Origin: a virus
IMG/VR virus record: IMGVR_UViG_3300031111_000011
Coordinates: 1 to 64,000 of that record
Reading direction: 5' to 3' (one strand)
Length of the DNA: 64,000 nucleotides
Under the pieces are notes generated by a model that was not told where the DNA came from, did not search any database, and worked only from the letters and a program-made list of their open reading frames with translations. A program made the translations under genes and the position numbers. Positions 2,422-34,367 of this stretch are shown in pieces; positions within the stretch are counted from its first letter, which is position 1; each line of letters starts with the position of its first letter.

Positions 2422-2571
2422 ATGGATAACACCTGCGATCAATGTCTATGCAAGAATTGTGACCATCCGGACTGCCCGTACCCATGCAAGGCGCAGCACT
2501 GCTGCGAAGCACCAGTCACTCGATGCCAGGATCTGGAAGATTATCGAAATGCGAAGGGATACAACAAGTAA
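2422..2571 (+). CDS. Cys-rich mini-protein (49 aa, 8 Cys; zinc-ribbon-like)
   Basis: SD aataggaggtcatcATG; CxxCxxC...C...C motifs. Replaces the mis-framed long ORF 2378-2722. Confidence 0.45.
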   Translation: MDNTCDQCLCKNCDHPDCPYPCKAQHCCEAPVTRCQDLEDYRNAKGYNK

Positions 2572-2572
2572 T

Positions 2573-2722
2573 ATGACGGTACAAGACGCACTCGCCAAAT
2601 TGGAAGAGATCCACAGGCCGAAAGGCGAACCCAAAGAGGTGAAACCGTCCACCTTCCGCAGAACGTGGAATGTGAACGAATACCGACTCAGGAGGATGTC
2701 ATGGAAGAGAGGAAAATCATGA
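2573..2722 (+). CDS. hypothetical small basic protein (49 aa)
   Basis: In-frame ATG 2 nt after previous stop; C-terminal part of listed ORF 2378-2722. Confidence 0.35.
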   Translation: MTVQDALAKLEEIHRPKGEPKEVKPSTFRRTWNVNEYRLRRMSWKRGKS

Positions 2723-3003
2723 GCAATCCCAGACTGAACACTCACCTCAAAGGTGAGGAAAAAATCGGCAATTGCACAGTGAGAATGATCCGCAAAACTG
2801 CGAACGAGCAGACCTACGAGTATGTCATCGAGATCATCGGACCCATGCACGGGATCGGTGACACGTACCAGATGGTCAAGATCCACTTCAAAGCGGAGTG
2901 GGGAAACGTGGAAAGCGGCCAGGATGCAGCCATGGATGCGGCTCGAATGTTCCGGAATCTGCGGGAAAGCAACCTTTCCACATTCACCTTCAATGAATCG
3001 TAA
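2701..3003 (+). CDS. hypothetical protein (100 aa)
   Basis: SD aggaggatgtcATG; alternative ATG at 2719 with ATGA overlap. Confidence 0.5.
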   Translation: MEERKIMSNPRLNTHLKGEEKIGNCTVRMIRKTANEQTYEYVIEIIGPMHGIGDTYQMVKIHFKAEWGNVESGQDAAMDAARMFRNLRESNLSTFTFNES

Positions 3004-3019
3004 CCAGGAGGAGAGCAAC

Positions 3020-3175
3020 ATGAAGACCTACCGCATCAAACACCGTAAAGGCAAGAACACGAATCACTGGGCCATCTGGGAAGTCAAGAAGGGAAACAAG
3101 ACGGGACCGCCCAGGATCGTGGCAACGGGACCGTACAGCGAGGTCTGGGCCAAGTTCCAGGAGATCATCGGCTGA
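3020..3175 (+). CDS. hypothetical small basic protein (51 aa)
   Basis: SD ccaggaggagagcaacATG. Confidence 0.45.
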   Translation: MKTYRIKHRKGKNTNHWAIWEVKKGNKTGPPRIVATGPYSEVWAKFQEIIG

Positions 3176-3255
3176 TTGCCTTACGTCCCCACATGAGCGC
3201 TCAAGCGCTTGTGTGGGGAGGCAAGCCAATCAACACACTAAAAGGGGAGGATTTC

Positions 3256-3429
3256 ATGACGTACTGGAATTGGATGTTGGACCTGATCTTTGATTTCGCA
3301 CCATTTAACCATGATCTGGCTGCTTTTGTCCGGGATCTGGGAATGTCCGCTCAGGTCATGCCATTGCACCGGGATCACCACGAACTGTTCGGGGAAATCG
3401 TGGACAGTTGGCACGGTGACAACCGATAG
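3256..3429 (+). CDS. hypothetical small protein (57 aa)
   Basis: SD aaaggggaggatttcATG inside listed ORF 3193-3429. Confidence 0.45.
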   Translation: MTYWNWMLDLIFDFAPFNHDLAAFVRDLGMSAQVMPLHRDHHELFGEIVDSWHGDNR

Positions 3430-3438
3430 GAGGAAATC

Positions 3439-3831
3439 ATGGGACGAAGCGTAAGCACACCACCGAATTGCGAGGCCGTGGCCTACCAGCACATGGACTT
3501 TGAGGATGAAATCGACTGGGAAATGTTCGTTGAGGACATCCGCTTCATTGCCACCTCACTCTGGCCGTCTCTGGATGAGACGGACGAATGGGTGGGCCGT
3601 GAGGACCACGCACTCCTTGAGAATCAGCACTGCTACATCGGGGTGAGTGAGTACTGTGGACTCATCGCCATCTGGCTCCAGGTCAAGGAGGACATGAACA
3701 ACGATCATCCGGAGCTTTCCCGGCACTGGTGTGGTCAGATTAGCAAGCGGTTCGTGGAAACCTTCGGGGAACTGCGGAAGGTTGGAACATTCAGCAACGG
3801 GGAAGCCGTTTTCGAAAGGATCGCCGCATAA
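3439..3831 (+). CDS. hypothetical acidic protein (130 aa)
   Basis: SD taggaggaaatcATG. Confidence 0.55.
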   Translation: MGRSVSTPPNCEAVAYQHMDFEDEIDWEMFVEDIRFIATSLWPSLDETDEWVGREDHALLENQHCYIGVSEYCGLIAIWLQVKEDMNNDHPELSRHWCGQISKRFVETFGELRKVGTFSNGEAVFERIAA

Positions 3832-4010
3832 TGACCACCTATCTCATGTACATCGACTGGATGACCATCGGGTCAGGGCTGCTTTCTGCCGATGACCTGG
3901 ACTTTCTCACCCTAATGGTGGACCGATCCAGTCAGGTGAAGGTGCTCCTGGCTCAAAGGGATGCAGGAATTCAGAGAATCAGCAACCGATTCACGGGCAT
4001 TAGCCGATAG
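3831..4010 (+). CDS. hypothetical small protein (59 aa)
   Basis: TAATG start-stop overlap; ends with TAG just before an SD. Confidence 0.4.
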   Translation: MTTYLMYIDWMTIGSGLLSADDLDFLTLMVDRSSQVKVLLAQRDAGIQRISNRFTGISR

Positions 4011-4019
4011 GAGGAGCTA

Positions 4020-4439
4020 ATGGTATCAGCCCAGATAGCGGAGAAGATCCAAAAAGTCCACGCACTTGCCGAACGCGGCATCAACGGGGAAAAGGCAGCA
4101 GCAGAACGGCTGCTTGCCAGCCTACTCACCAAGCACGATGTCACCCTGGAGCAGGTGGGCATCTTCAATGCCAAGCGATCCTGGCACACATTCTCTTTCC
4201 AAGACAAACAACAGAAAGCTTTTCTCTCTCATATCATCGCAGCAGTAGTAAAACGGAAGTATAGTGCGGAGATAAATGGGAAGAAGTTTTTTGCATGGAT
4301 GACTGAAGACGAGGCCACAAACGCACGGCTTGCTTACGTTAAAGCGAAGAGATACTATAACCGGGAAGTAAAGTCTGCAAAAAACAGAACAGCGAATATG
4401 ATCATCAACTCACTCTACACCAAAGGAGAAGCACAATGA
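4020..4439 (+). CDS. hypothetical protein (139 aa)
   Basis: SD taggaggagctaATG. Confidence 0.55.
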   Translation: MVSAQIAEKIQKVHALAERGINGEKAAAERLLASLLTKHDVTLEQVGIFNAKRSWHTFSFQDKQQKAFLSHIIAAVVKRKYSAEINGKKFFAWMTEDEATNARLAYVKAKRYYNREVKSAKNRTANMIINSLYTKGEAQ

Positions 4440-5332
4440 CCCTCATGAAAAAGATCGAAAACGGAACTGATGCCATCCTCGCCATGGAAGAAGCCGGACA
4501 CAATTACACCGTCAGCAAGGTGCCCCTGGTTCTGCCCAACGGCGCGACGGTGCCCGATATGTGCGCCACGGTTACCGACGATGGCCGGTATCTGGGCACT
4601 GTGGGGCGGGACTTCCAACCCGTTCAGCCAGTGGACGTCTACGGGATTGCCCAGAACATGATCGATCTTTCCGGAGGCCAGATCACCAAGGTCGCAACTC
4701 TCCACGATGGTGGGTCGATGGCGATTTCCATCCACCTCCAACGGATGGAGCCGGTCACTGGGGACGTTGTGGATCTGGACTTCCTGCTCATGGCGGGGAA
4801 CAACGGCAAGATGGCGGTCCAGGGCCGATCCTTGTCAACCCGATTCTTTTGCATGAATCAACTTCCTTCGTCCACCTCACTCTTTTCCCTGAAGCACACC
4901 GTGAATGTTCTTTCTCGGATGGAGACGGCCACCAAGATGCTGGCCTACTACAACCGGGAACTCACCAAGTTCCAGGATGCCCTGCGGGTGCTCACTCGCT
5001 TCCGACATCCTGAAAAACAAGCGCTGGAATGGTTCACTGGGCTTCTCCCTGCTCCCCAGAAGGACAGCAAACGCAGTGCGTCCATCCACGAGAATACCGT
5101 GGAAACCTTCATCGAGCTACTCCACGACGGCCAGGGCGCAAATCATCCCGGTGTCCGTGGAACCGGATGGGGATCGCTGAATGCCCTGACGGAGTGGGTG
5201 AATCACCATCGGTCCACTCGTGTCCGGGGTGACCGTGATCCGGAGGAGGTCAAATTCACCTCCGTGACCATGGGGTCCGGTGATCAACTGATGCAGAAGG
5301 GGCTCAAGTCCCTACTCAAGATTGCCGTGTAA
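4436..5332 (+). CDS. hypothetical protein (298 aa), possibly DUF932-like
   Basis: ATGA overlap with upstream gene; size and composition resemble DUF932 proteins (unverified). Confidence 0.5.
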   Translation: MTLMKKIENGTDAILAMEEAGHNYTVSKVPLVLPNGATVPDMCATVTDDGRYLGTVGRDFQPVQPVDVYGIAQNMIDLSGGQITKVATLHDGGSMAISIHLQRMEPVTGDVVDLDFLLMAGNNGKMAVQGRSLSTRFFCMNQLPSSTSLFSLKHTVNVLSRMETATKMLAYYNRELTKFQDALRVLTRFRHPEKQALEWFTGLLPAPQKDSKRSASIHENTVETFIELLHDGQGANHPGVRGTGWGSLNALTEWVNHHRSTRVRGDRDPEEVKFTSVTMGSGDQLMQKGLKSLLKIAV

Positions 5333-5521
5333 ACCCGCAGAGGGTGCAAGGGAACCTCCACGGGGCGGGGTGGTCCTGCCCAGGCAACGTGTGACTCCCT
5401 GAGTGCCAAGAAGTGATGGGGAGGACCGGAGGAGCATCTCAGCAGGGTTCTTGCCAAACCCTGGCTCTTTGGATGGCTCCTCCCCTACTTCGCTCAAAAC
5501 CTACTAAATCGAGGAGGTACT

Positions 5522-5698
5522 GTGGAACCCGCACTGCTTGAAGAGATTCAAAACGGGCCAACTATTGATGGCTACAAAGAACTCGCCCGACAGATTGATT
5601 GGGTCCAGAGGCTTAATGGGATGAAAGATGATTTGACCATTAGTGCCCTGACCCACATTGTGGACAGGATGAAAAAGGGAGGTGTAAAGTGCCGCTGA
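5522..5698 (+). CDS. hypothetical small protein (58 aa, GTG start)
   Basis: SD aatcgaggaggtactGTG; overlaps next gene start. Confidence 0.35.
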   Translation: MEPALLEEIQNGPTIDGYKELARQIDWVQRLNGMKDDLTISALTHIVDRMKKGGVKCR

Positions 5699-6684: not shown

Positions 6685-6686
6685 AC

Positions 6687-8936: not shown

Positions 8937-9134
8937 ATGTCTATTTGTGATCGGTGTGCGACCGGGTGTTGGACAGCCCCGAGTGTCCGTTGTCAGGCTT
9001 GCAATGCAGGTAGTCTGTTCATTCCCAATGGGGAACCCCACAAGGTGATGCCCCCGGTGCTTCACAAGGAAACCGAGACGTTTGGGTGGATTCTCCGCAA
9101 ACAGCTTCGGGAGAGATGCTACGATGCAACTTGA
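8937..9134 (+). CDS. Cys-rich small protein (65 aa)
   Basis: SD aaggaggaaagcgactATG; CDRC...C..C...C motif. Confidence 0.5.
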   Translation: MSICDRCATGCWTAPSVRCQACNAGSLFIPNGEPHKVMPPVLHKETETFGWILRKQLRERCYDAT

Positions 9135-9942
9135 CGAGCGGTACTTCGACGTTGATGCACCCCAGGACGTGACGCTTCGGTATCTTCACGAAGGGTGCAG
9201 CGACGGCAAAGATACCTGTCTGGTAGTAACTAAGACCAACAGCGGGTGGGCGTACTATTGCCATCGGTGCAAACTCAAGGGGTTCAAGCCGGTACATGGT
9301 TTGCCGCCATCGAAAGTGGCAGCGCTCTTTCGAGCGCAACAGCGAAAGCAATCCACTCTGGTACGCCAAGTTCAGCTACCCAAAGACTTCACCACGGAGA
9401 TCCCTCCAGAGGGTCTGGTGTGGCTCTACCGTGTAGGGATCACTGATTATGAGATCTCCTTCTTTGGTATTGGGTGGAGCAAGTCCTACGGCAGAGTGAT
9501 CCTGCCGGTGTACCAAGGACGAAAGCTGATTTACTGGCAAGGCAGGTATGTAGGCAAAGACGAGAGCATGGAGAAGTACGTCAACCAGAAACAAGTGGGT
9601 CGTGAGGACACCTACTTTCGGAACGAACCTCGTGTCACCTCTGGTCGAATCGTCATGGTCGAGGACATCCTGTCTGCTATCAAGGTGGGACGGGTGAGCA
9701 ACTGTATCGGACTCCTCTACGCCTACGTCCCCGATGCCCTCGTGGTCAAGCTACGTGAACGATATGATGAAATCGTGATCTGGCTGGACCCTGACAAGAG
9801 CCTCTACACACTGCGCGTCCTGAAGCGTCTCAGAGCGTTTGGGCTACCAGTCCGGAGAGTCTACTCACCGAAAGATCCAAAATATTACAACGAGGAAGAG
9901 ATCGAAAGTTTTCTGGAAGGAGGACTGAATGGGAGGACGTAA
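9124..9942 (+). CDS. DNA primase (T7 gp4-like zinc-binding domain + TOPRIM)
   Basis: CxxC-x15-CxxC zinc ribbon (CSDGKDTC...CHRC) then TOPRIM-like VMVEDILSAIKVG...; SD gggagagatgctacgATG. Confidence 0.7.
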   Translation: MQLDERYFDVDAPQDVTLRYLHEGCSDGKDTCLVVTKTNSGWAYYCHRCKLKGFKPVHGLPPSKVAALFRAQQRKQSTLVRQVQLPKDFTTEIPPEGLVWLYRVGITDYEISFFGIGWSKSYGRVILPVYQGRKLIYWQGRYVGKDESMEKYVNQKQVGREDTYFRNEPRVTSGRIVMVEDILSAIKVGRVSNCIGLLYAYVPDALVVKLRERYDEIVIWLDPDKSLYTLRVLKRLRAFGLPVRRVYSPKDPKYYNEEEIESFLEGGLNGRT

Positions 9943-10231: not shown

Positions 10232-10465
10232 ATGAAATATCCCACACTGGAAGAAGTGAATACGGCGAGTCACAGGGAGCTGGCCCGATGGTATCGGTTT
10301 CTACCCTCCCCCGGACTGAATGCCATCAATGATGGTCTTCCCAGGAAGGACTGGGAGAAAGTCGTGGAGCAGGAATGTGCCATCATGAACACCATCATAG
10401 AGCGATTCTCCGCAATGGGGGGTTTCAACCCCGCCCTGAGCAAGAAGATCGGGTGGAAGGCATGA
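10232..10465 (+). CDS. hypothetical protein (77 aa)
   Basis: SD taaggaggataaATG. Confidence 0.5.
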   Translation: MKYPTLEEVNTASHRELARWYRFLPSPGLNAINDGLPRKDWEKVVEQECAIMNTIIERFSAMGGFNPALSKKIGWKA

Positions 10466-10719
10466 GAATTCAACTCACTCCAGAGGAGATCGACGGACTG
10501 AAGACGTGGTTGGCGTACCCAAAGAAGGTCCGCAGAGGGGAATGTCCGTTTGTCTTTGTGCCGGGGAATACCTGTGCTCGTATCTGCCGCATGGTTTTTC
10601 CGGGTGATGAACTCGGCCTGTGCCCCTGTGACCAAGAGGGCGCAGACCATAAAAAAATCTATGAAGTTGCACGAGAAGGTGCGGAAAGGGGGTACATCAC
10701 AATTGGACTCGGACATTAA
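10462..10719 (+). CDS. hypothetical Cys-containing protein (85 aa)
   Basis: ATGA overlap; internal Met of listed ORF 10375-10719. Confidence 0.45.
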   Translation: MRIQLTPEEIDGLKTWLAYPKKVRRGECPFVFVPGNTCARICRMVFPGDELGLCPCDQEGADHKKIYEVAREGAERGYITIGLGH

Positions 10720-11713
10720 TGGCACGGTGATTTTTCTGACACCGTTTGGATCGCATCTCTACGGTACATCCACTCCGGAGTCGGATCTGGACTACAAGGG
10801 GGTGTATCTGCCGACAAAGGAGCAGATCCTGATCGGGAAGATCCCCAAGACTATCACTCGAAACACCAAGGTCGGAGAGGGGAAGAACAGCAAGGAAGAC
10901 ATTGACTTTCAACTTTATTCTCTCCCCTACTTTGTGGACCTTCTGGTCCAGGGTGAAACGTCGGCTATCGACATGATCCATGTCCGAAAGGATCAAGCTC
11001 TCGTGTGGACGGATGAGTGGGAACGGCTGCACCGCAACCGTCACATGAGCTACAGCAGAAATATGAAGGCGTTCGTCGGGTATGCCCGTAAACAAGCGGC
11101 CAAGTACGGGGTCAAAGGCAGTCGCCTTGCAGCCATGCAAGACGTCCTTGAATACCTGATGGCCTATATCCAGAAGGAGATTCTGTATGATTATGAACGT
11201 GATACCAAACTTCGAGACGTATGGGATGATCTTCCTGATGGTGATCATATTCATCGTCTTGATCCGACTGATCGAACTCCTTATCGCATGTATCAGGTCT
11301 GTGGGAAGAAGTTTATGGAGACAGTCAAGATTCGAGAAGTCTACGCTTCGATCAAGAAGTCCTATGATCAATACGGTCACCGGGCAGAACTGGCGAAGAA
11401 GAATCAGGGCATCGACTGGAAGGCAGTATCCCACGCACTCCGTGCGGCTTACCAACTGGTGGAAATCTTTGGGTCCGGGGATCTGGCCTTTCCACTCGCT
11501 GATGCGGCTTATCTGCGGAAAGTGAAGGAAGGCTCACTGGACTGGACCTCCTGGGTTCAACCCCACCTGGAGGAAATGATGGGCCGGGTGGAGTGTATGG
11601 CCTCTCTCTCCAAATTCCCAGAACAAGTGGACCGGACCTTCTGGAACAATCTGACTATCGACATCATGGAAACGTGGTTACTTACTCAAACTGTAGGAGG
11701 TGAATTATGCTGA
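10661..11713 (+). CDS. nucleotidyltransferase (Pol-beta/minimal NTase fold) of unknown specificity (~350 aa)
   Basis: TPFGSHLYGTSTPESDLDYKG fits hG[GS]-x9-13-D-x-[DE]; a third acidic motif EDIDFQLY lies ~45 aa downstream; start uncertain (ATG 10661 overlaps upstream gene). Confidence 0.55.
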   Translation: MKLHEKVRKGGTSQLDSDINGTVIFLTPFGSHLYGTSTPESDLDYKGVYLPTKEQILIGKIPKTITRNTKVGEGKNSKEDIDFQLYSLPYFVDLLVQGETSAIDMIHVRKDQALVWTDEWERLHRNRHMSYSRNMKAFVGYARKQAAKYGVKGSRLAAMQDVLEYLMAYIQKEILYDYERDTKLRDVWDDLPDGDHIHRLDPTDRTPYRMYQVCGKKFMETVKIREVYASIKKSYDQYGHRAELAKKNQGIDWKAVSHALRAAYQLVEIFGSGDLAFPLADAAYLRKVKEGSLDWTSWVQPHLEEMMGRVECMASLSKFPEQVDRTFWNNLTIDIMETWLLTQTVGGELC

Positions 11714-12774
11714 AGAACGTGACTATTTGTGGCTACAACGTGCGTGAAATCAATCTGGTACTGGCCGAGGACAACACCCCGCTTTACTCTGTGGGAGATC
11801 TCATGATGCCCATGGGGTTCACCCGCTACTCTGCGGCATCCAGGGTCAGGTCCATCCCGGAGCTTACCCACACCAAAATCAAGCTGCCCTCCACGGCCCA
11901 GGCGATTCATGTGGTGACCCCGGAGGGTGTCCTGGCCTTAGCCGAGACGGGGAAGTGTCGTACCAATTTCGTTTCGGAATTTCGATCCTATTGCCAGAAG
12001 GAGGGCATCCCCCTGCCCGATCCGGAAGTCACGCCGGATGGTCCCGCCGTCTTCAACGGCATCGAGATCACCTTCGAGGACGATGTCCTGGTGAGCCTGA
12101 CGGACATGTGGAAAGCGGACGGATCTCGTCAGGCCAAGAAACCCGTCCACTTCCTGAAAACGGATGGGACTGTGGAGTTTATCGAACAAATTCGGGAGGA
12201 AATAAAAGGTAAGGAATCTTACCTTTTACGATCTATCCCTGGTCGAGGTGGTGGAACCTACGCTCACTGGAAGATCGCTGTCCAGTATGCGGCTTTCCTC
12301 AGCCCCAAGTTCGCAAGCTGGATGGCCGATCTGGTCCGGGTCCGGTTCATCGAGATCAACGATCCGGAGCAGGGTGCCAAGCTGTACCGGGAACGTGCGA
12401 TCACCGACCGGATGAACAAGACCGGCTGCTCCCGTGAACAGGCAATCCACTATTTCGAGAAGAGCCTCGTCGCACGAAAAACGGTTTCGTCTCAGATCTG
12501 CCGGTTCGTTCCCAATGCGAGGAAACATATCGCTGAGATCACGGATCATCTCAATATGGGCTTTATCGGAATGAGAGCCCAGGACATCAAGAAAACCCGT
12601 GGGGTTTCCCAGACCCGTGAATCGTTTACCCTTGCGGAGCAGATGGGGGTGGCGTTTCTGGAACAGTGCATGATCGATCATATCGATCAAGTGAGATACG
12701 AAGCTGACCCGTACCACCTGCGGGATATGGCGTACTCCAACGGGCAAAAATGCCGAGCCATGATGGTGCGCTAA
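11707..12774 (+). CDS. Bro-N + KilA-N domain protein (antirepressor-like, 355 aa)
   Basis: N-terminal Bro-N-like LYSVGDLMMPMGF; central KilA-N-like GTYAHWKIAVQYAAFLSPKFASWMADL; SD ggaggtgaattATG. Confidence 0.6.
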   Translation: MLKNVTICGYNVREINLVLAEDNTPLYSVGDLMMPMGFTRYSAASRVRSIPELTHTKIKLPSTAQAIHVVTPEGVLALAETGKCRTNFVSEFRSYCQKEGIPLPDPEVTPDGPAVFNGIEITFEDDVLVSLTDMWKADGSRQAKKPVHFLKTDGTVEFIEQIREEIKGKESYLLRSIPGRGGGTYAHWKIAVQYAAFLSPKFASWMADLVRVRFIEINDPEQGAKLYRERAITDRMNKTGCSREQAIHYFEKSLVARKTVSSQICRFVPNARKHIAEITDHLNMGFIGMRAQDIKKTRGVSQTRESFTLAEQMGVAFLEQCMIDHIDQVRYEADPYHLRDMAYSNGQKCRAMMVR

Positions 12775-12917: not shown

Positions 12918-13223
12918 ATGAAAGAGTGTAACCGTTGCGGGAACCGGGAGTGTGACTTCATTCACGCTCCCAAGGAGCCGAAGGGCAAACCCAAAATGAG
13001 CTTTCCGAAGCTCCGGAAAGCCCCTCCAAAGGGGATCGCCCATGTTATGGGGCTTCCGTGCCCCATTTGGCGAAAAATCGACCCGATGCACAACCCTCTG
13101 TGGGAGAACCTGGACTCGGCCACCATCGTCAAGCTCCGGGATCTGCGGAAGGGGCTCGGCACACAGCGAAAAAACAAGGAGTGGAAAGGAGGCAAGAAGC
13201 GTAAACTTTGGAAAAACAGGTAG
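12918..13223 (+). CDS. hypothetical basic protein (101 aa)
   Basis: SD caaggaggattATG; Lys/Arg-rich. Confidence 0.55.
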   Translation: MKECNRCGNRECDFIHAPKEPKGKPKMSFPKLRKAPPKGIAHVMGLPCPIWRKIDPMHNPLWENLDSATIVKLRDLRKGLGTQRKNKEWKGGKKRKLWKNR

Positions 13224-14434
13224 TCTGTCTCCGTGGGCTGCTGGATCACGATGCGTACCTCCGCTACGGTCCAGCCCTCCACGGGCTTAAGGACACTGAG
13301 CGTGAAATCAAACAGATCTTGACAGCTATCCAGCAGTACTACAAGCGGTATCCTGAACAAAAGGCCATCTCAGTGGATGAACTGAGGGTCTTTTTCCACC
13401 AGCAGCATCCAGCACTCAAGGACAAAGATGTCTTTGACGTTCTGTTCGACCAGATCCAACACCTTGACATCTCAAATCCCGACCTATTGGAAGACGCACT
13501 GAGGGACGTAGTTGAGCAATATTACGTCGGAAAGCTTTGTGCTGTCGGACTCCCGTGTCTCAATGGGGAGTCCACAGGGGTCATCGAGAAAATGAAGGAA
13601 ATTCTCGAAGAGGGTCTTGAGAAGATGAGTAAGACCGGTGATCAGGACGATAACCGGTGCAATATGGATCTGGATTACCTACTCGATGAGACGTTCAAGA
13701 ACGGGCTCTACACACCTTTGAGGGATCTGCGGTCCCTCCTTGGGCCTATCTACCCAGGCACACTGGGCCACATCTTTGCACGTCCGGAGACAGGTAAGAC
13801 TTCGTTTGCTTCAGCGATGGCATCTGCCTTTGCTTATCAAGTGCGTGACACCTCCGACATCATCCTCTACCTCAACAATGAAGAGGACAAGCGGCGTATT
13901 GCACTTCGCATCTGGGTTTCCATGATCGGGCAACCGATCCAATTTCTCGACGGAAACCGAGAAGAGGCAAGGAGAATTTGGAGCGAACGAGGTGGTGATC
14001 GGATTGAAGTCATTGGTGGAGTCACACACATCTCGCAGGTCGAACAGTACATCAGTGAGTTCAGACCCCGTGCGGTGTTTGTTGACCAGGGGCCGAATGT
14101 TTCAATCCCTGGTGATATGTCCGGGACGGACAAGCTTACAAAGCTATACAAGACCTACCGGAAACTCGCAGGGAAGTATGAAACAATCTTCATCTCCATC
14201 GGACAGGCAGACAGTCAGGCTGAGAACAAACAATGGCTCACAATGAACAACATCGATTCCAGCAAGGTGGGTATTCCTGGCGCATGTGACTACATCATTG
14301 GCGTAGGGATGAAAGACGATCCGGGTATGGAAGAGATGCGGTACATCAACCTGCCGAAGAACAAACTCACTGGGCAAAAGGGAAGACTCGTCTGTAGGCT
14401 GGATGTTAACACGTCCCGGTACGTTTCTGTTTGA
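13208..14434 (+). CDS. replicative DNA helicase (DnaB/T7 gp4 helicase-like RecA-fold ATPase, 408 aa)
   Basis: Walker A ARPETGKTSF; Walker B-like FVDQG; TTG start overlapping upstream gene. Confidence 0.65.
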   Translation: MEKQVVCLRGLLDHDAYLRYGPALHGLKDTEREIKQILTAIQQYYKRYPEQKAISVDELRVFFHQQHPALKDKDVFDVLFDQIQHLDISNPDLLEDALRDVVEQYYVGKLCAVGLPCLNGESTGVIEKMKEILEEGLEKMSKTGDQDDNRCNMDLDYLLDETFKNGLYTPLRDLRSLLGPIYPGTLGHIFARPETGKTSFASAMASAFAYQVRDTSDIILYLNNEEDKRRIALRIWVSMIGQPIQFLDGNREEARRIWSERGGDRIEVIGGVTHISQVEQYISEFRPRAVFVDQGPNVSIPGDMSGTDKLTKLYKTYRKLAGKYETIFISIGQADSQAENKQWLTMNNIDSSKVGIPGACDYIIGVGMKDDPGMEEMRYINLPKNKLTGQKGRLVCRLDVNTSRYVSV

Positions 14435-25089: not shown

Positions 25090-25329
25090 TTGAATCAGAA
25101 GGGATTCACTTTGATCGAACTGATGATTGTGGTTGCGATCATTGGGATCTTGGGCGCTGTGGCCGTCCCCAATCTCGTTTCTTACAAGCAGAAAGCGGAG
25201 TCGGCAGCACTGGAAATCAAGATCAACCGAGAGAACATGAAAAAGGCGGGGGAGGATCTGAGGGACACCTTCAAGTCCCTCCTCCCCCGGAAGACTTACT
25301 CGAACGAAGTTATTGTGACAAGGGAGTAA
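25090..25329 (+). CDS. type IV pilin-like (prepilin-type N-terminal methylation motif) mini-protein (79 aa, TTG start)
   Basis: MNQKG|[22 protein letters not shown] matches the prepilin leader + N-methyl-Phe + hydrophobic helix signature; SD aggagg 5 nt upstream of TTG. Confidence 0.55.
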
Positions 25330-26446: not shown

Positions 26447-27661
26447 ATGGAAAAGGTCATGTTTTCATCAGGCAGAATCCCTGCCTACTCATGGTTACCA
26501 GTGGACAAACTGGAGGAAGGCGCTCTGGAACAGATCCAGGCTTGCACTGCCCACCCCAAGGCTTACCACCACATGGCTGTGATGCCCGACTGTCACCAGG
26601 GATATGGGATGCCCATTGGCGGTGTGGTTGCCCTGGACGGCGCAATCAGCCCCAACATGGTGGGGGTGGACATCGGCTGTGGGATGAGTGTGGTCCGCAC
26701 CAACGCCAAATTCGTTCACACTTATCAAATCAAGGAAATCCTGAACCGACTCAAGACCATGGTTCCTGTCGGTGAGGGGAAGTTTCGATCTGACCCCGTC
26801 TCCTGGCCCAAGTGGGTGGAGTATCTGGACAAGGTCAAGGAGCGTCCTGACTGGATGAAGGGCTCTAACTGGCATCGGTTCAAGTGCAGCATGGGAACTC
26901 TGGGAGGTGGGAACCACTTTCTGGAGCTTCAGCGGGATGAAGAGGGTTACCTCTACATGATGCTCCACTCCGGTTCCCGTGGCCTGGGGTACGCCATTGC
27001 CAAGTACTACAACGAACTGGCCCAGACCTACTGCGTCAACCTAGACATCCCCAACAAAGATCTGGCTTACCTGCCGACCGATCACAAGTGGGGGCAAGCC
27101 TACATCCGGGACATGAACTTCGCCCTGGCTTTTGCCAAGGAAAACCGCAGGGTCATGATGGATGCCTTCAAATTCGCTTTCTTCCACGTTCTTGGATCTC
27201 CTGTCCGGGAGGACATTGATGTTGTCGATGAGATCGACATCCACCACAACTACGCGGCATTGGAGCACCACTTCGGCAAGGATCTGTGGGTTCACCGGAA
27301 AGGCGCGACTTCGGCCCAGTCTGGACAACTGGGGATCATTCCCGGTTCCATGGGAACCCACTCCTACGTCGTCGCTGGTAAGGGGAACCCGGACTCCTTC
27401 AAGTCCTGCTCCCACGGTGCTGGTCGAGTGAAGGGTCGGATGGCCGCTACTCGTGAACTCGACCGGATGGAGCAGGAGAGGAAGATGGACGGCATTGTCT
27501 TTGACGGGTTCAAAACCCTGAAGAAGGGTAAGCTGAAAGGTGCGTATGACCTGGGCGAAGCCCCTGATGCCTACAAAAATATTGATACTGTCATGTGGCA
27601 CCAGGGGGATCTGGTGGACGTGGTAGTAAAACTCAAACCGATAGGAGTCTTGAAAGGGTGA
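26447..27661 (+). CDS. rtcB: RNA-splicing ligase RtcB (3'-phosphate/5'-OH RNA ligase, 404 aa)
   Basis: RtcB signatures HMAVMPDCHQGYG, GGNHFLELQ, MLHSGSRGLG, CSHGAGR; ATG 4 nt after SD. Confidence 0.9.
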   Translation: MEKVMFSSGRIPAYSWLPVDKLEEGALEQIQACTAHPKAYHHMAVMPDCHQGYGMPIGGVVALDGAISPNMVGVDIGCGMSVVRTNAKFVHTYQIKEILNRLKTMVPVGEGKFRSDPVSWPKWVEYLDKVKERPDWMKGSNWHRFKCSMGTLGGGNHFLELQRDEEGYLYMMLHSGSRGLGYAIAKYYNELAQTYCVNLDIPNKDLAYLPTDHKWGQAYIRDMNFALAFAKENRRVMMDAFKFAFFHVLGSPVREDIDVVDEIDIHHNYAALEHHFGKDLWVHRKGATSAQSGQLGIIPGSMGTHSYVVAGKGNPDSFKSCSHGAGRVKGRMAATRELDRMEQERKMDGIVFDGFKTLKKGKLKGAYDLGEAPDAYKNIDTVMWHQGDLVDVVVKLKPIGVLKG

Positions 27662-28328: not shown

Positions 28329-28483
28329 AAGTCAAAATTTATTACGGGTACTTCAGTAGCGTGGAAATGAAGTTTAATGAAGTTTTTGGGGAGCGAAAGG
28401 ACATACGCATCTCTCATGTCCGGCAGACTCCTATTGGAGACACCCGCTACATTATGCTCAGTGTCTTCTATGAGGAGGTCTAA
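28325..28483 (+). CDS. hypothetical small protein (52 aa)
   Basis: ATGA overlap; ends 2 nt into the next gene. Confidence 0.4.
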   Translation: MKVKIYYGYFSSVEMKFNEVFGERKDIRISHVRQTPIGDTRYIMLSVFYEEV

Positions 28484-28638
28484 TGAACTTCTGCAAGAAG
28501 TGCAAGCATTACCAGAAGCTTCCCAGGCATGTGAGCAAGTGCCCCAGTGAGAAGGTGGGCTGGTGTCAGCTTCTGGTCCGGTATGTCGCAGCAGAGGATC
28601 GGTTCAACAAATGCTTCGAGAAACGTGAGGAAGCATGA
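28483..28638 (+). CDS. Cys-rich mini-protein (51 aa, zinc-ribbon-like)
   Basis: TAATG overlap; CKKC...C...C...C. Confidence 0.4.
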   Translation: MNFCKKCKHYQKLPRHVSKCPSEKVGWCQLLVRYVAAEDRFNKCFEKREEA

Positions 28639-28937
28639 AGCTGATCTGCTGTCCCTCTTGTTGGGACGTGTTCAAACTCGCCAAGGAAGAGCGCACCTGC
28701 TCATGCGGACGGTGCTCAGGCAGGTACCTCAACAACACCTACGCCGAGACAAATGGTGAGGGAATCAACCTCGCCATTGGCAACGGGTCACTCCTGCAAG
28801 CGGCTTACAACCTCGACCACTTTGCGAAGGACGCAGAGCGTCACGAGTTCATCGACCACAACCCCGTGATCTGTTGGGTCCGTCCTCCAGAAGGACCGGG
28901 AAACCCACACACCACTGTACGAAAGGAGGAATCATGA
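28635..28937 (+). CDS. Cys-rich protein (100 aa)
   Basis: ATGA overlap; CCPSC...CSCGRC cluster. Confidence 0.5.
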   Translation: MKLICCPSCWDVFKLAKEERTCSCGRCSGRYLNNTYAETNGEGINLAIGNGSLLQAAYNLDHFAKDAERHEFIDHNPVICWVRPPEGPGNPHTTVRKEES

Positions 28938-30322
28938 ACCCCATTCTGAATACTGACTCTTACAAAGCGAGTCATTACAGGCAGTACCCTGAAGATGTGG
29001 CCTGGGTGAGTTCCTATATCGAAGCACGGGGTGGAAAATACCCTGAGACGGTTTTCTTCGGGCTGCAAGCCTTCCTGAAGGAGTACCTAAGCAAACCCTT
29101 CACCCAGGCTCATATCAATGAGGCAGAGGACTTCTGGGAGGCTCACGGCCTCCCGTTCAATCGGGGAGGGTGGGAATACATCCTCGCCAGATACCGGGGC
29201 TATATGCCTATTTTGATCCAGGCGGTGGATGAGGGCTCGGTGGTTCCCACTGGCAATGTTCTTGTTCAGATTATTAACACTGACCCTGAAGTTCCCTGGA
29301 TCACCAGCTACGTGGAAACCGCTCTGCTCCGGGCAATCTGGTACCCCACCACGGTGGCTACCCTTTCCCACTTCTGCAAGCGAGATCTCTACAACTACTG
29401 GAAGGAGTCGAGTGACGCTCCTATTGAGTCCCTGGACTTCAAACTTCACGACTTCGGTGCTCGTGGGGTGAGTTCCCTGGAATCTGCTGGACTGGGTGGG
29501 ATGGCCCACCTCGTCAACTTCAAAGGCACCGATACGGTGGAAGGGGTTCTCGCTGCAAGACGGTACTACAACGAGCCCATGGCAGGATACTCAATCCCTG
29601 CTGCCGAGCACTCCACCATCTGCTCCTGGGGCGGTCCAGGACGAGAAATGGATGCCTTCCGAAACATGATCAGCCAGTTCGGTGGAGACTATCCACTGAT
29701 CGCTGTGGTCAGCGATTCGTACAATATCTGGGACGCAGTGGATAACAAATGGCCTTACCTGGATACCGAGATCAGTGCCAGTGGGTCCACCATCGTGGTC
29801 CGTCCGGACAGTGGAGATCCCCACATCGTACCTGTCGAGGTGATCAGCCGTCTCATGCAGAAGTTCGGATTCACGGTCAATAGCAAGGGCTACCACGTCC
29901 TTCCGGATCGAATTCGAGTTATCCAAGGCGACGGGATTACCGGCGATAGCCTGAATCGCATCCTGTTCAACCTCCGGATGAAGCGTCTCAGCATCGACAA
30001 TATTGCCTTTGGTATGGGTGGTGGGCTGCTCCAGCAGATCAACCGGGATACCTGCAAGTTCGCCATGAAGTGCAGTGCGGTTGCTGGCAAGAGCAACCAA
30101 TGGCAACCGGTGTTCAAGCAACCTGTGGATCAGCCTGACAAGGTGAGCAAAAAGGGTCGGCTGAACCTGATCCGGAACTCGGATGGTGAGTTCGAGACGG
30201 TCCCGGAGAAGTGGGAAGAGTCGCGGGGGGTTATGCCCATCCGGAGCATTAACGGGCTCCGCTACCACACCACAACTTTCGAGGAAATCCGGGGACGGGT
30301 CCAGGAGCACCTCATTGCTTAG
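28934..30322 (+). CDS. nadV: nicotinamide phosphoribosyltransferase (NAMPT/NadV, 462 aa)
   Basis: MNPILNTDSYKASHYRQYPE N-terminus and overall length typical of NAMPT; SD aaaggaggaatcATG. Confidence 0.85.
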   Translation: MNPILNTDSYKASHYRQYPEDVAWVSSYIEARGGKYPETVFFGLQAFLKEYLSKPFTQAHINEAEDFWEAHGLPFNRGGWEYILARYRGYMPILIQAVDEGSVVPTGNVLVQIINTDPEVPWITSYVETALLRAIWYPTTVATLSHFCKRDLYNYWKESSDAPIESLDFKLHDFGARGVSSLESAGLGGMAHLVNFKGTDTVEGVLAARRYYNEPMAGYSIPAAEHSTICSWGGPGREMDAFRNMISQFGGDYPLIAVVSDSYNIWDAVDNKWPYLDTEISASGSTIVVRPDSGDPHIVPVEVISRLMQKFGFTVNSKGYHVLPDRIRVIQGDGITGDSLNRILFNLRMKRLSIDNIAFGMGGGLLQQINRDTCKFAMKCSAVAGKSNQWQPVFKQPVDQPDKVSKKGRLNLIRNSDGEFETVPEKWEESRGVMPIRSINGLRYHTTTFEEIRGRVQEHLIA

Positions 30323-30821
30323 AGTCGGAGTCTTTGTTGGCAGATGCCAACCTTTCCACAAGGGGCATGAGCAGATCATCCGTCAGATGCTCCATGAACG
30401 TGGAACAGAGCGGTGTGTCATTCTCTTGGGGAGCATCAATGCTCCCCTTTCCGCTAAGAACCCTTTCCCCTACCCCACTCGTTATCAGTGGGTGAAGAAC
30501 ACCTTCCAGTATGTCCATGTCTTGGGCATTCCGGACTTCCCCGACAATGATGACTACTGGCTCTTCCATATCATGCAAGTTCTCAAGCTCCCTTACGTGG
30601 AGAGTGTTGACCCTTATTTCTACGTAGGCAGTGAGAGAGACGGTCGGGTCTACCACGAGCGTGGATTCACAACCATGATCGTTCCGCGCAGTAAGCAGTA
30701 CAGTGGGACTGAGATCCGAAGACGGCTTGCAGCCGGTGAGGACTTCAGTGAATTGGTGAGCGACCCTGAGTACGCTCAGTCAGTGAAGAGTGTGTGGGAC
30801 ACTGTGAAACATGCAATTTGA
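30315..30821 (+). CDS. nicotinamide/nicotinate mononucleotide adenylyltransferase (NMNAT, NadM-like, 168 aa, TTG start)
   Basis: Nucleotidyltransferase (H/T)xGH motif VGVFVGRCQPFHKGH; size fits archaeal/phage-type NMNAT; only in-frame start preserving the motif is TTG 30315 overlapping the nadV stop. Confidence 0.7.
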   Translation: MLRVGVFVGRCQPFHKGHEQIIRQMLHERGTERCVILLGSINAPLSAKNPFPYPTRYQWVKNTFQYVHVLGIPDFPDNDDYWLFHIMQVLKLPYVESVDPYFYVGSERDGRVYHERGFTTMIVPRSKQYSGTEIRRRLAAGEDFSELVSDPEYAQSVKSVWDTVKHAI

Positions 30822-30834
30822 AAGGAGGAAACAA

Positions 30835-31128: not shown

Positions 31129-31343
31129 CGCACTTCTTCACCAAGGAGTCGATCCCAAGAGGACCGTGGGTGACGTACCGCAAGAAACACCTCACTCAGG
31201 CAATGAGGATCGACGGGCCTTTCGGAGTGGAAACCAGGGAGGGCCGAGTGCATTGCCCTGATGGTTATCTGGCAGTGGATGCCCACGGTTATCCTTATCC
31301 AATCGCAACGGATGAGTTCGAAATGATTTACGAGGAGGTGTGA
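31125..31343 (+). CDS. hypothetical protein (72 aa, GTG start)
   Basis: GTGA overlap. Confidence 0.45.
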   Translation: MTHFFTKESIPRGPWVTYRKKHLTQAMRIDGPFGVETREGRVHCPDGYLAVDAHGYPYPIATDEFEMIYEEV

Positions 31344-31720
31344 TGAAAACAATCCTATACGTGATTCAGCACAAGACCACCAAAGAGTTCCTGTCGGGGA
31401 GTGGAATGTACTCCGAGTTGACTTCAAATTTGGGGGAAGCCCGATACCACCACGCGCCAGGGTATGCCAAACTCCACCTGGGGCATTATCTCCGGGGTTA
31501 CCGCAACAGAAGCCACACCAAGGCTTCCTTCGAGATCGTCCCTGTGACGGTCAGCCTGGGGGAAGAACCCCCTGTCCCTGACGACTACGAGTACCTCCAT
31601 TGGTTTAGGGTTGAGGCTGATTTCGGTCCTGCTGACGGTGATGTGAAAGCCATCATGGACGAGCAGTACGAAGCGGAGACAGGGAATCCGGTTCCTGAAA
31701 ACTGGAGACGGGAGGAATAA
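31343..31720 (+). CDS. hypothetical protein (125 aa)
   Basis: SD gaggaggtgtgATG. Confidence 0.55.
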   Translation: MKTILYVIQHKTTKEFLSGSGMYSELTSNLGEARYHHAPGYAKLHLGHYLRGYRNRSHTKASFEIVPVTVSLGEEPPVPDDYEYLHWFRVEADFGPADGDVKAIMDEQYEAETGNPVPENWRREE

Positions 31721-31941
31721 TGTCAAAGATCAATTTACTGACCATGGTCTATGGCAATAAGAGGCTTGAGGTCAAAGCCTCGGACTGTTGGACCAAGAAT
31801 GACAGGCCCATCCTTTTCTGGTGCAAGCGGGTTCGTCAGGAGGGCTATGAGGACATCTGTTTGATTTCCTTTGTGTTCCTCATCTTTGCCATTTGGTTTG
31901 GGTGGAAAACCCCAGATGGCTCACCAGTGAGGATTCCGTGA
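31720..31941 (+). CDS. small membrane protein (73 aa, C-terminal TM)
   Basis: TAATG overlap; hydrophobic ICLISFVFLIFAIWFGW. Confidence 0.5.
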   Translation: MSKINLLTMVYGNKRLEVKASDCWTKNDRPILFWCKRVRQEGYEDICLISFVFLIFAIWFGWKTPDGSPVRIP

Positions 31942-32087
31942 TGCCCAAATACGTCTACGAACCACACACTCCCGTGAAGTTCAAGTGGTGCAAGTGGATG
32001 GTCTGTAAGCATTGTGGCCTTGTCTACTTGCGAAATAAATCGACCAAGAAAGCCGTCCAACTGGGATGCAACTGGAGGGACCGATGA
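31941..32087 (+). CDS. Cys-rich mini-protein (48 aa)
   Basis: TGATG overlap; CKWMVCKHCG. Confidence 0.4.
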   Translation: MPKYVYEPHTPVKFKWCKWMVCKHCGLVYLRNKSTKKAVQLGCNWRDR

Positions 32088-32251
32088 GCGAGAGTGAGTT
32101 GGACATTCTGATGAAAAGGTTAGAGCCCTTTGCAAAAGGACTCTTTTCGGGACAGGTCTGTGAGTGGCCCCAACTTAAGCCTCTTTTGGCAGATCTGTAC
32201 GGATATCTGGAAAGAGAAAAACGCAGGAAGGAGTTTGATGGAACGACGTGA
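32084..32251 (+). CDS. hypothetical protein (55 aa)
   Basis: ATGA overlap. Confidence 0.4.
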   Translation: MSESELDILMKRLEPFAKGLFSGQVCEWPQLKPLLADLYGYLEREKRRKEFDGTT

Positions 32252-33398
32252 AACTTTCCCCACCATATACACCTTATCCAGGGTGGGGAAGCCACAGAGG
32301 TGGCGTGTAGAAGTCAACGAGACTCCCGTCAACGAGTATGCCTTACTGGTAGTTCAGTACGGGCAAGTTGACGGCAAACTCACCCAGAGCGTCAAGAAGA
32401 TCAAAGGCAAGAACATTGGCAAAGCCAATGAGACAACCCCTTACGAACAAGCCCTGAAGGAAGCCAAGGCGAAGCACCTCAAGCAACTCACTCAGGGTGG
32501 ATACTTCGATCACATTCCCACCAAGCAGGAGATGGATGACCTCCTCCTGCCGATGCTGGCTCAACCCTTCGAGAAGCGTAAGAAACATATTGAGTACCCT
32601 GCCATCGTTCAGCCCAAGCTGAACGGAGTGAGGTGTATGGTTCGACGGGTCAGTGAGTCGAGGGTGATCTTCAGATCCCGCCTGGGGAAAAGCTATGACA
32701 AGGTAACGAAACATCTGGTCCCTCACCTTCTCCAGTTGCTTTCTGTTGGGGAAACCTGGGACGGGGAACTCTACGTCCACGGGTGGACCTTCCAGCGCAT
32801 CGTCCGTGCTGTCAAGAAGTTCAGAGAGGACGACACTCCAAAGCTTGAGTTCTGGGTCTACGACAAGGTTAGTGACGAAGATTACGCCGACAGATACAAC
32901 TACCTTTGGAAAAAGATCCTTGAGCACGGAGTACCCGATCTCAGTCCTGTCAAGTGGACTAACAGCCAGATTGTGATCAGGGAAGCTGAGATAAGACAGT
33001 ACCACGACTTCTACGTGCAGCACGGCTTTGAGGGGATCATCATCCGGAACCGGAAGGGTGGTTATCAGACCGTTTACCGGTCCAACAACCTCCAGAAGTA
33101 CAAGGAGTTCATCGACCATGAGTTCATCATTATCGATGGGCGGTCCTCCGAGGGGAACCAGGAAGGGTGTGTGGTATTCACTGTAGAGGGTGTTGCCATT
33201 GACGCCAAAAAGAAAGAGCACCCGGCTGGTGTGGTTCGGTTTGAGGTTGTGCCTCGTGGCACCTTCGAGCAGAGACGCAAATACCTCACCGATATCGATG
33301 ACCTGATTGGCGAGGAGATTACAGTACGTTACCAGGAACTCTCTGAAGATGGTGTGCCTATCTTTCCGGTGGGTGTAGCCATCAGGGACTATGAGTGA
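32238..33398 (+). CDS. ATP-dependent DNA ligase (T7 gp1.3-like, 386 aa)
   Basis: Motif I KLNGVRC (KxDG variant), nucleotidyltransferase motifs FEGIIIRN and EGCVVF; SD aggaaggagtttgATG. Confidence 0.8.
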   Translation: MERRETFPTIYTLSRVGKPQRWRVEVNETPVNEYALLVVQYGQVDGKLTQSVKKIKGKNIGKANETTPYEQALKEAKAKHLKQLTQGGYFDHIPTKQEMDDLLLPMLAQPFEKRKKHIEYPAIVQPKLNGVRCMVRRVSESRVIFRSRLGKSYDKVTKHLVPHLLQLLSVGETWDGELYVHGWTFQRIVRAVKKFREDDTPKLEFWVYDKVSDEDYADRYNYLWKKILEHGVPDLSPVKWTNSQIVIREAEIRQYHDFYVQHGFEGIIIRNRKGGYQTVYRSNNLQKYKEFIDHEFIIIDGRSSEGNQEGCVVFTVEGVAIDAKKKEHPAGVVRFEVVPRGTFEQRRKYLTDIDDLIGEEITVRYQELSEDGVPIFPVGVAIRDYE

Positions 33399-33604
33399 TG
33401 CAATGGATTCATAGGAGTTCTGTGCTGCGGAAGGCAGAATGGCACCGTTGGTTTGCTTGGCACCCCGTGGCTGTGAAAACATATCCGGATGGTTCCGAGA
33501 AGATGATCTGGTGGGAACCTGTTCTCCGTCGAGGAGAGCTTCAACTTGTATTGGATGGTGTCGAGTGGGTCTACGAATATAAGGAGATCGAAGGGGATGA
33601 CTGA
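33395..33604 (+). CDS. hypothetical Trp-rich protein (69 aa)
   Basis: ATGA overlap. Confidence 0.45.
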   Translation: MMQWIHRSSVLRKAEWHRWFAWHPVAVKTYPDGSEKMIWWEPVLRRGELQLVLDGVEWVYEYKEIEGDD

Positions 33605-33764
33605 AGAAAAGAAAAGTATCACCTGCAAGTGCGGTCACTTCAGTGAGTTTCCTGCCTACGTTTACGCTCACTGGTACCACCAGCTTGTTTGGAGATGCCC
33701 GGAATGTGGAACAAGATACGACCTGTTGGCGGGTGTCTACAAGGAGGATGAATATGAAGACTAA
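33597..33764 (+). CDS. Cys-rich mini-protein (55 aa, C4 zinc ribbon)
   Basis: CKCGHF...CPECGTRY. Confidence 0.4.
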   Translation: MTEEKKSITCKCGHFSEFPAYVYAHWYHQLVWRCPECGTRYDLLAGVYKEDEYED

Positions 33765-34032
33765 TCACATGAATGCCTGTTACAAGTGCAAGTGGAGCAG
33801 ACGGGTTCCAGGCAGCAGCCATCACCAGTGCTGCATCCTGGGGCTACATTATGTTGAACGCACTGAGGGTAGGGGATTCGTTGCTCCCACCAGTATGCAC
33901 CCTGTGGAGAAGGGTTGGTTCCTCTGGCCTTTCAACTTTGATCCGGTGTGGCTTGAGTTCTGTGTAGAGTGGGAACGCCAGCGTGAAATCCTGTTCCGGA
34001 AGTTTGACAATATTCTGAGAAAGGAGGCTTAA
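33751..34032 (+). CDS. Cys/His-rich protein (93 aa)
   Basis: CYKCKW...HHQCC. Confidence 0.45.
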   Translation, partial: NMKTNHMNACYKCKWSRRVPGSSHHQCCILGLHYVERTEGRGFVAPTSMHPVEKGWFLWPFNFDPVWLEFCVEWERQREILFRKFDNILRKEA

Positions 34033-34235
34033 TGCCTGTTCGACATCTCACTGCAACAAAGGATGGTCCAAAGGAAGTGGACCTGACTCCTGTCAAAGCC
34101 ATTCGCCTTCACTGCCTTGAGTGTATGGGGTGGGAGGTGACTGAAGTTCGTAAGTGTACTCGCCCAACTTGCCCTCTATTTCCGTTTAGACTTGGAAAGA
34201 ATCCTGGGCGTAAGGGTGTCGGCCCTCAGTCGTAA
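34032..34235 (+). CDS. Cys-rich protein (67 aa)
   Basis: TAATG overlap; CLECMGWE...C..C. Confidence 0.45.
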   Translation: MPVRHLTATKDGPKEVDLTPVKAIRLHCLECMGWEVTEVRKCTRPTCPLFPFRLGKNPGRKGVGPQS

Positions 34236-34250
34236 GTAGGACACTCTACT

Positions 34251-34367
34251 ATGAAGACCCACCGCTATAAGTGTCATAGATGCGGCTACGTGACCTACGT
34301 CACTTACCTGGACGGTGAGGATGGAGTTTGTCCTCATTGCCTCACTCCGATCATTCTACCTATCTAA
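34251..34367 (+). CDS. zinc-ribbon mini-protein (38 aa)
   Basis: CHRCGY...CPHC; last gene before the terminator. Confidence 0.35.
   Translation: MKTHRYKCHRCGYVTYVTYLDGEDGVCPHCLTPIILPI

Follow-up and report, generated by a model that had tools for sequence, protein, structure and literature searches.

Analysis of a 64,000-nucleotide (nt) stretch of viral DNA (positions 1 to 64,000 of IMG/VR record IMGVR_UViG_3300031111_000011, called the window throughout) showed eleven small open reading frames (ORFs) rich in cysteine (Cys). They are named here by their leftmost position: 2422, 8937, 10462, 28483, 28635, 31941, 33597, 33754, 34032, 34251 and, on the minus strand, 34421. These are probably a mixed set of genuine, mutually unrelated, zinc-folded phage accessory genes, which occur at a normal frequency and do not form a special system. 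All eleven were present and translated as claimed in the initial annotation, with a single coordinate slip (33751, for which the ATG is at 33754), and a twelfth Cys-cluster gene (12918..13223, plus strand) had been missing from its list. The feature is ordinary for the early and middle regions of phages; it had been correctly seen and over-read as unusual.

The frequency of such genes was obtained by running an identical gene caller and identical criteria on the window and on all comparison genomes and loci. The baseline panel consisted of 25 environmental phage loci chosen solely for carrying a ligase homologue, and is thus unbiased as to Cys. Small genes with at least four Cys made up 12 of the 51 small genes of the window (23.5%) and 76 of 433 (17.6%) in the panel (Fisher p=0.34). 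The strict pattern, defined as two CxxC or CxxxxC knuckles 6-45 residues apart, was found in 11.8% of the window genes and 9.2% of the panel genes (p=0.61), and 36% of the panel loci matched or exceeded the window in Cys richness. Loci retrieved via the 28635 and 34032 families were similar to the window in this respect. The unusual abundance that had been proposed is therefore the environmental baseline, and the genes are abundant only relative to chance: the strict pattern was carried by 6 of 51 called small genes and by 3 of 428 spurious ORFs in the window (Fisher p=7e-5). The Cys content of the window was 2.3% in small proteins and 0.84% in large proteins; since the large proteins have a normal Cys content, the richness of the small genes is not a genome-wide composition effect.

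The strict pattern was satisfied by 2422, 8937, 28635, 34032, 34251 and 34421, and the loose pattern (two Cys/His knuckles of CxxC, CxxxxC or CxC type about 6-45 residues apart) additionally by 28483, 33597, 33754 and 12918, while the Cys spacing of 10462 and 31941 was irregular. An all-vs-all comparison of the ORFs returned knuckle-length matches only, and on this comparison of their sequences the eleven ORFs are not paralogues. Zinc-ribbon-like Cys pairs in genuine small genes, as originally described, were borne out by the coding scores, by ribosome-binding sites (RBS) or translational coupling, and by three families (28635, 34032 and 31941), in each of which exactly four Cys are invariant.

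The ORF 34032 (34032..34235, plus strand) encodes a basic protein of 67 amino acids (aa) with AIRxxC-x2-C-x10-C-x4-CPLFPFRLGK and belongs to a widespread phage family with the motif AIRxxCxxC-x10-C-x4-CPL[FY]PFRxGK, of which it has the core AIRxxCxxC…C-x4-CPL[FYW]x[FY]R. Matches in tblastn, 53-55% identical over the motif, were obtained in Rhodobacter phage RcTiptonus, Agrobacterium phage JP1 and Pseudomonas Samunavirus phages, and the back-translated core pattern matched 34 viral contigs. Most of these contigs encode the motif in a protein of its own, 53-90 aa long and ending in a basic helical tail, while some encode tandem repeats. The invariant Cys of the family are C28, C31, C42 and C47. 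The short forms adjoin recombinases, D5-type primases or replication initiators, and the Pseudomonas Samunavirus phages have a longer form between terminase and portal; a role as a packaging-module protein was considered for the family and holds for its long form alone, as present in large siphophages. In six IMG/VR contigs the family takes the form of 142-aa proteins in which CPL[YW]P[FY]R is repeated three times in tandem, and RcTiptonus has two adjacent paralogues, gp27 and gp28 (4097-5037 of the retrieved locus). An equivalence of the pair 33754 and 34032 with RcTiptonus gp26/27 was rejected, as the match was driven by the 34032-like C-terminal domain alone.

The ORF 31941 (31941..32087, plus strand) encodes a basic 48-aa protein with C17-x4-C22-x2-C25…C43, and was not publicly called. 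It is a member of phrog_7020 (E=6.5e-8) and is 50% identical to Erwinia phage Hena1_00320, with the four Cys (C17, C22, C25 and C43) invariant. In Pfam, NCBIfam and PHROGs, no ORF gave a match above threshold except this one, and phrog_7020 has no function assigned. The third family is that of 28635 (28635..28937, plus strand), a 100-aa protein with a putative N-terminal zinc ribbon (C6-x2-C9…C22-x-C24) and the motif WVRPNxGxGNPHT, which is ATGA-coupled to the gene for NAMPT. A HMMER search of 1.84 billion representatives (clusters at 50% identity) returned 646 homologues at E<=1e-3 and 85 at E<=1e-10, the best being 50-56% identical over the full length. In the alignment, K2, C6, C9, L15, C22, C24, G29, Y31 and R83 were invariant, N50 and N90 near-invariant, and the WVRPNxGxGNPHT motif was near-invariant across the family; 28635 itself has the full-length similarity, the four Cys and the motif.

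Taken as a mixed set, the genes would be 11 or 12 or more unrelated accessory genes that share an operon with replication, nucleotide-metabolism and repair genes in a novel temperate phage of 67 kb. At 38-101 aa, each mini-protein would be too small for a hydrophobic core and most likely folds round one structural zinc ion or two, with paired Cys/His knuckles as ligands, in the manner of a zinc ribbon or treble clef. Mini-proteins stabilised in this way would act by binding. Judging from composition, the basic ones (31941, 34032, 28483 and 12918) are most plausibly nucleic-acid binders or regulators of phage DNA/RNA transactions, and the acidic ones (34421, 33597 and 2422) more plausibly bind proteins. 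The genes were presumably acquired independently, and five of them may have accumulated beside the integrase at the insertion-tolerant ends of convergent operons.

The window count exceeds that of all five cultured or reference podoviruses, which had 0 to 5 small genes with at least four Cys per genome: HMO-2011 (1/37), ICP2 (5/33), MW202697 (2/23), CRP-1 (1/26) and T7 (0/24). Several points weigh against the interpretation as a mixed set at normal frequency. The baseline was produced with a simple gene caller of our own that possibly over-calls small ORFs, although it was applied identically everywhere. Zinc binding is suggested by motifs only, the Cys spacing of 10462 is irregular, and 2422, with 9 Cys in 49 aa, could instead hold an Fe-S cluster or form disulfides. 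Eight of the eleven ORFs are without a detectable homologue and so offer no handle on the constraint on their Cys, and the division into basic and acidic proteins is a composition argument only.

The initial annotation had remarked that such proteins frequently act as host-takeover factors binding host RNA polymerase, nucleases or defence proteins; that the mini-proteins are host-takeover or anti-defence factors, which would bind and inhibit these targets, is possible but doubtful. The ORFs are small, fast-evolving and mostly without a detectable homologue, and they share an operon with genes of counter-defence or repair type (RtcB, NAMPT with an NMNAT-like protein, and a RlaP-type nucleotidyltransferase). 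Small phage proteins commonly mediate phage-host interactions (PMC11323111), and there are precedents in TraR and lambda Orf73, C4 zinc-finger proteins of about 73 aa that bind the RNA polymerase secondary channel and reprogram RNA polymerase (PMC9239242). The cluster beside the integrase resembles an accessory-gene hot spot. However, no candidate matched a known modulator family, and 34421 lacks the features of TraR. The three conserved families span phages of very different hosts and lie in structural or replication modules, which argues for conserved or phage-internal partners; the presence of the 34032 family in the terminase-portal modules of other phages is a poor fit to pure takeover. 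A literature search turned up no relevant surveys of phage zinc-ribbon mini-proteins.

A further alternative concerns 28635 only, namely that its protein is a new functional family and not a generic binding module, which is unlikely. Structure prediction, one of the checks named in the initial annotation, was informative for this ORF and not for 33754: the AlphaFold2 model of 28635 with the family alignment was confident (predicted local distance difference test score, pLDDT, 95.7; predicted template modelling score 0.80), while the single-sequence AlphaFold2 model of 33754 was unreliable and unusable (pLDDT 48). The 28635 model is a compact fold that opens with an N-terminal beta-ribbon, and this ribbon aligns weakly to the eS27 zinc ribbon, its sole structural match, and to DUF7695. 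The fold as a whole, conserved C-terminal domain included, had no structural neighbour. No Pfam domain was detected in any family member, no source was found that names the family, and a search of 50,697 GenBank phage records gave no member, the members being found only in uncultured sequences. Its neighbours in other loci include RecT, MazG, a SLOG protein and an SF2 helicase. The size of the family, the neighbourless fold, the invariant polar residues, the coupling to NAMPT and NMNAT-like genes and the SLOG, MazG and RecT neighbours point to a possible role as an enzyme or regulator, and 28635 could be a small zinc-dependent one tied to nucleotide/NAD metabolism or to counter-defence. In a freer extension of this unlikely reading, the five genes beside the integrase could be an anti-defence islet of inhibitors. 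Large, unannotated, confidently folded and without a structural neighbour, the 28635 family is the most interesting residue of this analysis.

A reading in which the ORFs, in part or in total, are spurious non-coding frames, Cys-rich by accident because Cys codons are common off-frame, is very unlikely. The window's spurious ORFs did contain 2.75% Cys, compared with 0.84% in large genes. A codon model was trained on 26 long window genes and the window was tiled by weighted-interval selection; the self-trained tiling picked 10 of the 11 ORFs as the best use of their interval. Ranked over their own interval, 10 of 11 ORFs (among them 8937, 10462, 28483 and 33754) were the first of six frames, compared with 7 of 428 size-matched spurious ORFs; 2422 was only second by raw score. 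Each Cys codon weighs -1.7 to -1.8 bits in this model because Cys is rare in the training genes. With Cys codons excluded, all 11 ORFs scored 0.15-0.40 bits/codon, which matches genuine genes (mean of the other small genes 0.30; spurious ORFs -0.20). Most have an AGGAGG-type Shine-Dalgarno sequence at 4-10 nt or an ATGA/TAATG overlap with a neighbour, and the ORFs tile the operon without gaps. A public gene caller on the same contig had called 8 of the 11; it missed 2422 and 31941 and called 10462 in a single assembly, that of Logan. The absence of 31941 is offset by its 50%-identical homologue. Because a Cys codon counts as non-coding, standard gene finders call too few of the Cys-rich mini-genes; 2422 and 31941 were such omissions here. 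The initial annotation had named lack of conservation in relatives as the mark of spurious ORFs; its proposal did not fall by this condition, since the ORFs scored as coding and three were conserved in unrelated phages, while eight had no detectable homologue.

Nine of the ORFs are genuine genes, and 2422 and 10462 are, with good though lesser confidence, probably genuine as well. The ORF 2422 (2422..2571, plus strand; 49 aa) has 9 Cys and 2 His (C5, C8, C10, C13, H15, C18, C22, H26, C27, C28 and C35) and is the least supported of the eleven. It starts with ATG 5 nt from a perfect AGGAGG, lies within a 355-nt stretch left empty by the public caller and scored 0.37 bits/codon with Cys excluded, while its sole competitor, ORF 2378-2722, scored -6.3 bits and has no RBS. 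A possible 49-aa ORF with a weak score (-1.2 bits) was also seen at 2573-2722 (plus strand), 1 nt past the 2422 stop and with a 22-nt overlap with the next gene. The ORF 10462 (10462..10719, plus strand; 85 aa) has 5 Cys (C28, C38, C42, C54 and C56), is not a classical ribbon and is linked to the gene before it (10232-10465) by ATGA coupling. If the RlaP-type gene uses its long start, the two compete over the 3' part of 10462; the RlaP domain begins only at about 10718, past the 10462 stop.

The clustering of the genes bears on another alternative, that the block 33597-34648 is a single multi-subunit functional module or a lineage-specific expansion of paralogues, which is highly improbable. 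A run of five consecutive ORFs at the end of the plus-strand block had been noted initially. The run of adjacent Cys-rich genes was indeed non-random (permutation P 0.001-0.003), but only four (33597, 33754, 34032 and 34251) are on the plus strand, where they are translationally coupled; the fifth, 34421, is on the minus strand, where it ends the convergent integrase operon on the far side of a terminator. An intrinsic-terminator-like hairpin with a T-run (34383-34410, plus strand) separates the two convergent operons between the 34251 and 34421 ORFs. Similarity among the five is limited to single knuckles, and 34032, the sole member with homologues, is found elsewhere without the other four.

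The ORF 33597 (33597..33764, plus strand) encodes an acidic 55-aa protein with a CxC-x21-CxxC ribbon pattern and gave sub-threshold zinc-ribbon profile matches only. The ORF 33754 (33754..34032, plus strand) is a publicly called 92-aa ORFan with an AGGAGG RBS and CxxC…HH-x-CC followed by a Trp-rich C-terminal half. The ORF 34251 (34251..34367, plus strand; 38 aa) is a putative minimal C4 ribbon (CxxC-x15-CxxC) and the last gene of the plus-strand operon; its best profile match was DUF7573, at 23.5 bits and below the 30.2 cutoff. The ORF 34421 (34421..34648, minus strand), publicly called, encodes an acidic 75-aa protein of C4 type (CxxC-x23-CxxC), has a 1-nt overlap with the integrase stop and had the best coding score of the set (0.28 bits/codon).

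The idea that 8937 is the detached zinc-binding domain of the adjacent DnaG/T7-gp4-type primase was rejected as scarcely credible. In its favour, the two genes overlap by 11 nt where the primase starts, the phrog_47 match of the primase begins only at profile position 58, and a double-ribbon mini-ORF (gp45) occupies this position in ICP2. Against it, the primase keeps its own H-x2-C…C-x2-C motif (H22, C25, C46 and C49), and 8937 resembles neither primase profiles nor ICP2 gp45. The ORF 8937 (8937..9134, plus strand; 65 aa) has CxxC-x3-C-x7-CxxC and an AGGAGG RBS, and was publicly called. The primase (9124-9942, plus strand; 272 aa; phrog_47, E=9.5e-34) is a short T7-gp4/DnaG-like form, and its N-terminal H22/C25…C46/C49, judged by eye, aligns with CxxC…CxxC in the primases of HMO-2011, CRP-1 and ICP2. 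The helicase (13208-14434) is a separate protein whose gene is 3.3 kb downstream, beyond the RlaP-type and KilA-N genes. In Vibrio phage ICP2, gp45 (36841-37131; 96 aa, double zinc ribbon, phrog_19971) overlaps the start of the primase gene. A ribbon mini-gene at the podovirus primase may be a recurrent positional association, 8937 and ICP2 gp45 having no mutual sequence similarity.

Two more plus-strand genes complete the set. The ORF 28483 (28483..28638; 51 aa) encodes a basic protein with CxxCxH…C…C, has an AGGAGG RBS, is ATGA-coupled on both sides and was publicly called. The additional gene 12918 encodes 101 aa, 27 of them K/R, with C4-x2-C7-x4-C12-x3-H16 followed by a very basic tail, and runs into the start of the DnaB-like helicase gene; it had no Pfam or PHROG match, and could encode a helicase-associated nucleic-acid binder.

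For the eight ORFs without a homologue, no counterpart was found in GenBank phages or in about 1 Mb of retrieved phage loci, and 80 ligase-anchored metagenome loci contained no counterpart of any of them. Direct scans with 2422 (metagenomes) and with 34421 and 10462 (viral contigs) gave no relative. Among the eight, only 33754 had a valid deep database search, in which it matched only itself among 5.8 billion proteins, and the rest were checked against smaller collections.

The window covers about 64 kb of a circular temperate phage genome of 67 kb, which was assembled from a metagenome. Identical proteins are carried by a 67.07-67.10 kb metagenomic contig (ENA ERZ27252236; also in JGI and Logan), which is a circular permutation of the window. 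No GenBank phage was similar to the window at the DNA level. The phage is only distantly related to HMO-2011/ICP2-type podoviruses. Its DNA polymerase is 29-35% identical to its counterparts in HMO-2011, CRP, ICP2 and MEP-type podoviruses, and a search of IMG/VR with this polymerase recovered no relative. The best homologue of the window ligase was 48% identical, and the contigs bearing ligase homologues were unrelated phages. By these comparisons it is a novel temperate phage with close relatives absent from all collections searched.

The plus-strand block (about 1.5-34.4 kb) encodes the primase, the DnaB-like helicase, a family-A DNA polymerase, a class II ribonucleotide reductase, RtcB RNA ligase (26447-27661), NAMPT (28934-30322), its NAD-salvage partner, an NMNAT-like protein (CTP_transf_like; 30315-30821), an ATP-dependent DNA ligase, the RlaP-type nucleotidyltransferase (10574/10727-11713, alternative starts) and a KilA-N protein (11707-12774), the coordinates all being on the plus strand. 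The occurrence of RtcB, the NAMPT and NMNAT-like pair, the RlaP-type nucleotidyltransferase and KilA-N in a single operon gives it an RNA-repair or counter-defence flavour. A 79-aa protein (25090-25329, plus strand) had a precomputed Pfam N_methyl match (prepilin-type N-terminal methylation motif), which is odd amid nucleotide-metabolism genes. The minus-strand block follows, with the tyrosine integrase first and then structural genes; two small genes downstream of the integrase there is one 2235-aa ORF (36987-43694, minus strand) with a very strong coding signal. An array of 12 tRNAs (62077-63735, minus strand) comprises Gln, Asn, Lys, Ile, Val, Arg (two), Thr, Gly (two), Ala and Asp; tRNA-Cys is absent from this array in a temperate phage that also has RtcB and the RlaP-type nucleotidyltransferase. 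An Rfam scan of window positions 1-36500 detected no RNA family.

Cys-rich zinc mini-proteins account for about 1 in 6 small genes in the early regions of uncultured phages, and such genes are so common that a scan which flagged them as unusual would be flooded with ordinary matches. The baseline gained here, about 18% of small genes with at least four Cys and about 9% with two strict knuckles, can serve as a yardstick for claims of abundance. Two widespread unannotated phage families were defined by a signature and invariant ligands, WVRPNxGxGNPHT (about 100 aa) and CPLYPFRxGK (55-90 aa), and both are reasonable targets for structural and functional study.

Comparison with known zinc-finger systems showed likeness in size and knuckle type, but no candidate has the defining features of TraR/DksA, Ogr/Delta, Lar or Com. 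Lar, the restriction alleviation protein of the Rac prophage, and Com, a translational activator of Mu, are small C4 phage proteins and, like Ogr/Delta, further precedents for host takeover; the ORFs resemble them as phage zinc-finger-type proteins of less than 100 aa. No window ORF matched the Lar_restr_allev or Com profiles; in the comparison panel, ICP2 gp68 alone matched Lar, and only weakly (E=0.028).

The late-gene activators P2 Ogr and P4 Delta have a C-x2-C-x22-C-x4-C zinc finger that contacts RNA polymerase alpha. The 34032 protein has the same C-x2-C and C-x4-C knuckle types, a similar size and a basic character, but its spacing is 10 and not 22, it has no Ogr_Delta Pfam match and it carries its own CPLYPFRxGK signature. 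TraR has its Cys at 37, 40, 58 and 61, and the closest look-alike of the TraR/DksA proteins in the window is 34421, which is similar in size (75 aa), acidic and C4 (Cys 32, 35, 59 and 62). It differs in that the spacing between the CxxC pairs is 23 and not 17 and in that there is no C-terminal helix; the N-terminal DxxDxA motif, which is the criterion for TraR/DksA (PMC9239242), is missing, the ORF having DMSDDMSVA instead. No ORF matched zf-dskA_traR in Pfam at E<=1, and the CxxC spacing was 23 in 34421 and 15 in 34251, compared with 17.

The rV5-like Vequintavirinae family phrog_7020 shares a profile match and the four Cys with 31941, which is 48 aa here and is without the C-terminal 20 aa; 31941 lies near the ligase, while Hena1_00320 follows a tRNA nucleotidyltransferase. 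The generic zinc-ribbon and treble-clef mini-domains (Pfam zinc beta-ribbon clan; DUF7573, DUF7695 and Phage_zn_bind_8) have the same size (38-100 aa) as the ORFs, which likewise have two CxxC-type knuckles 10-25 residues apart. Sub-threshold matches to these profiles were given by 33597 and 34251, no ORF reaching any gathering score, and 28635 differs from them by its extra conserved C-terminal domain.

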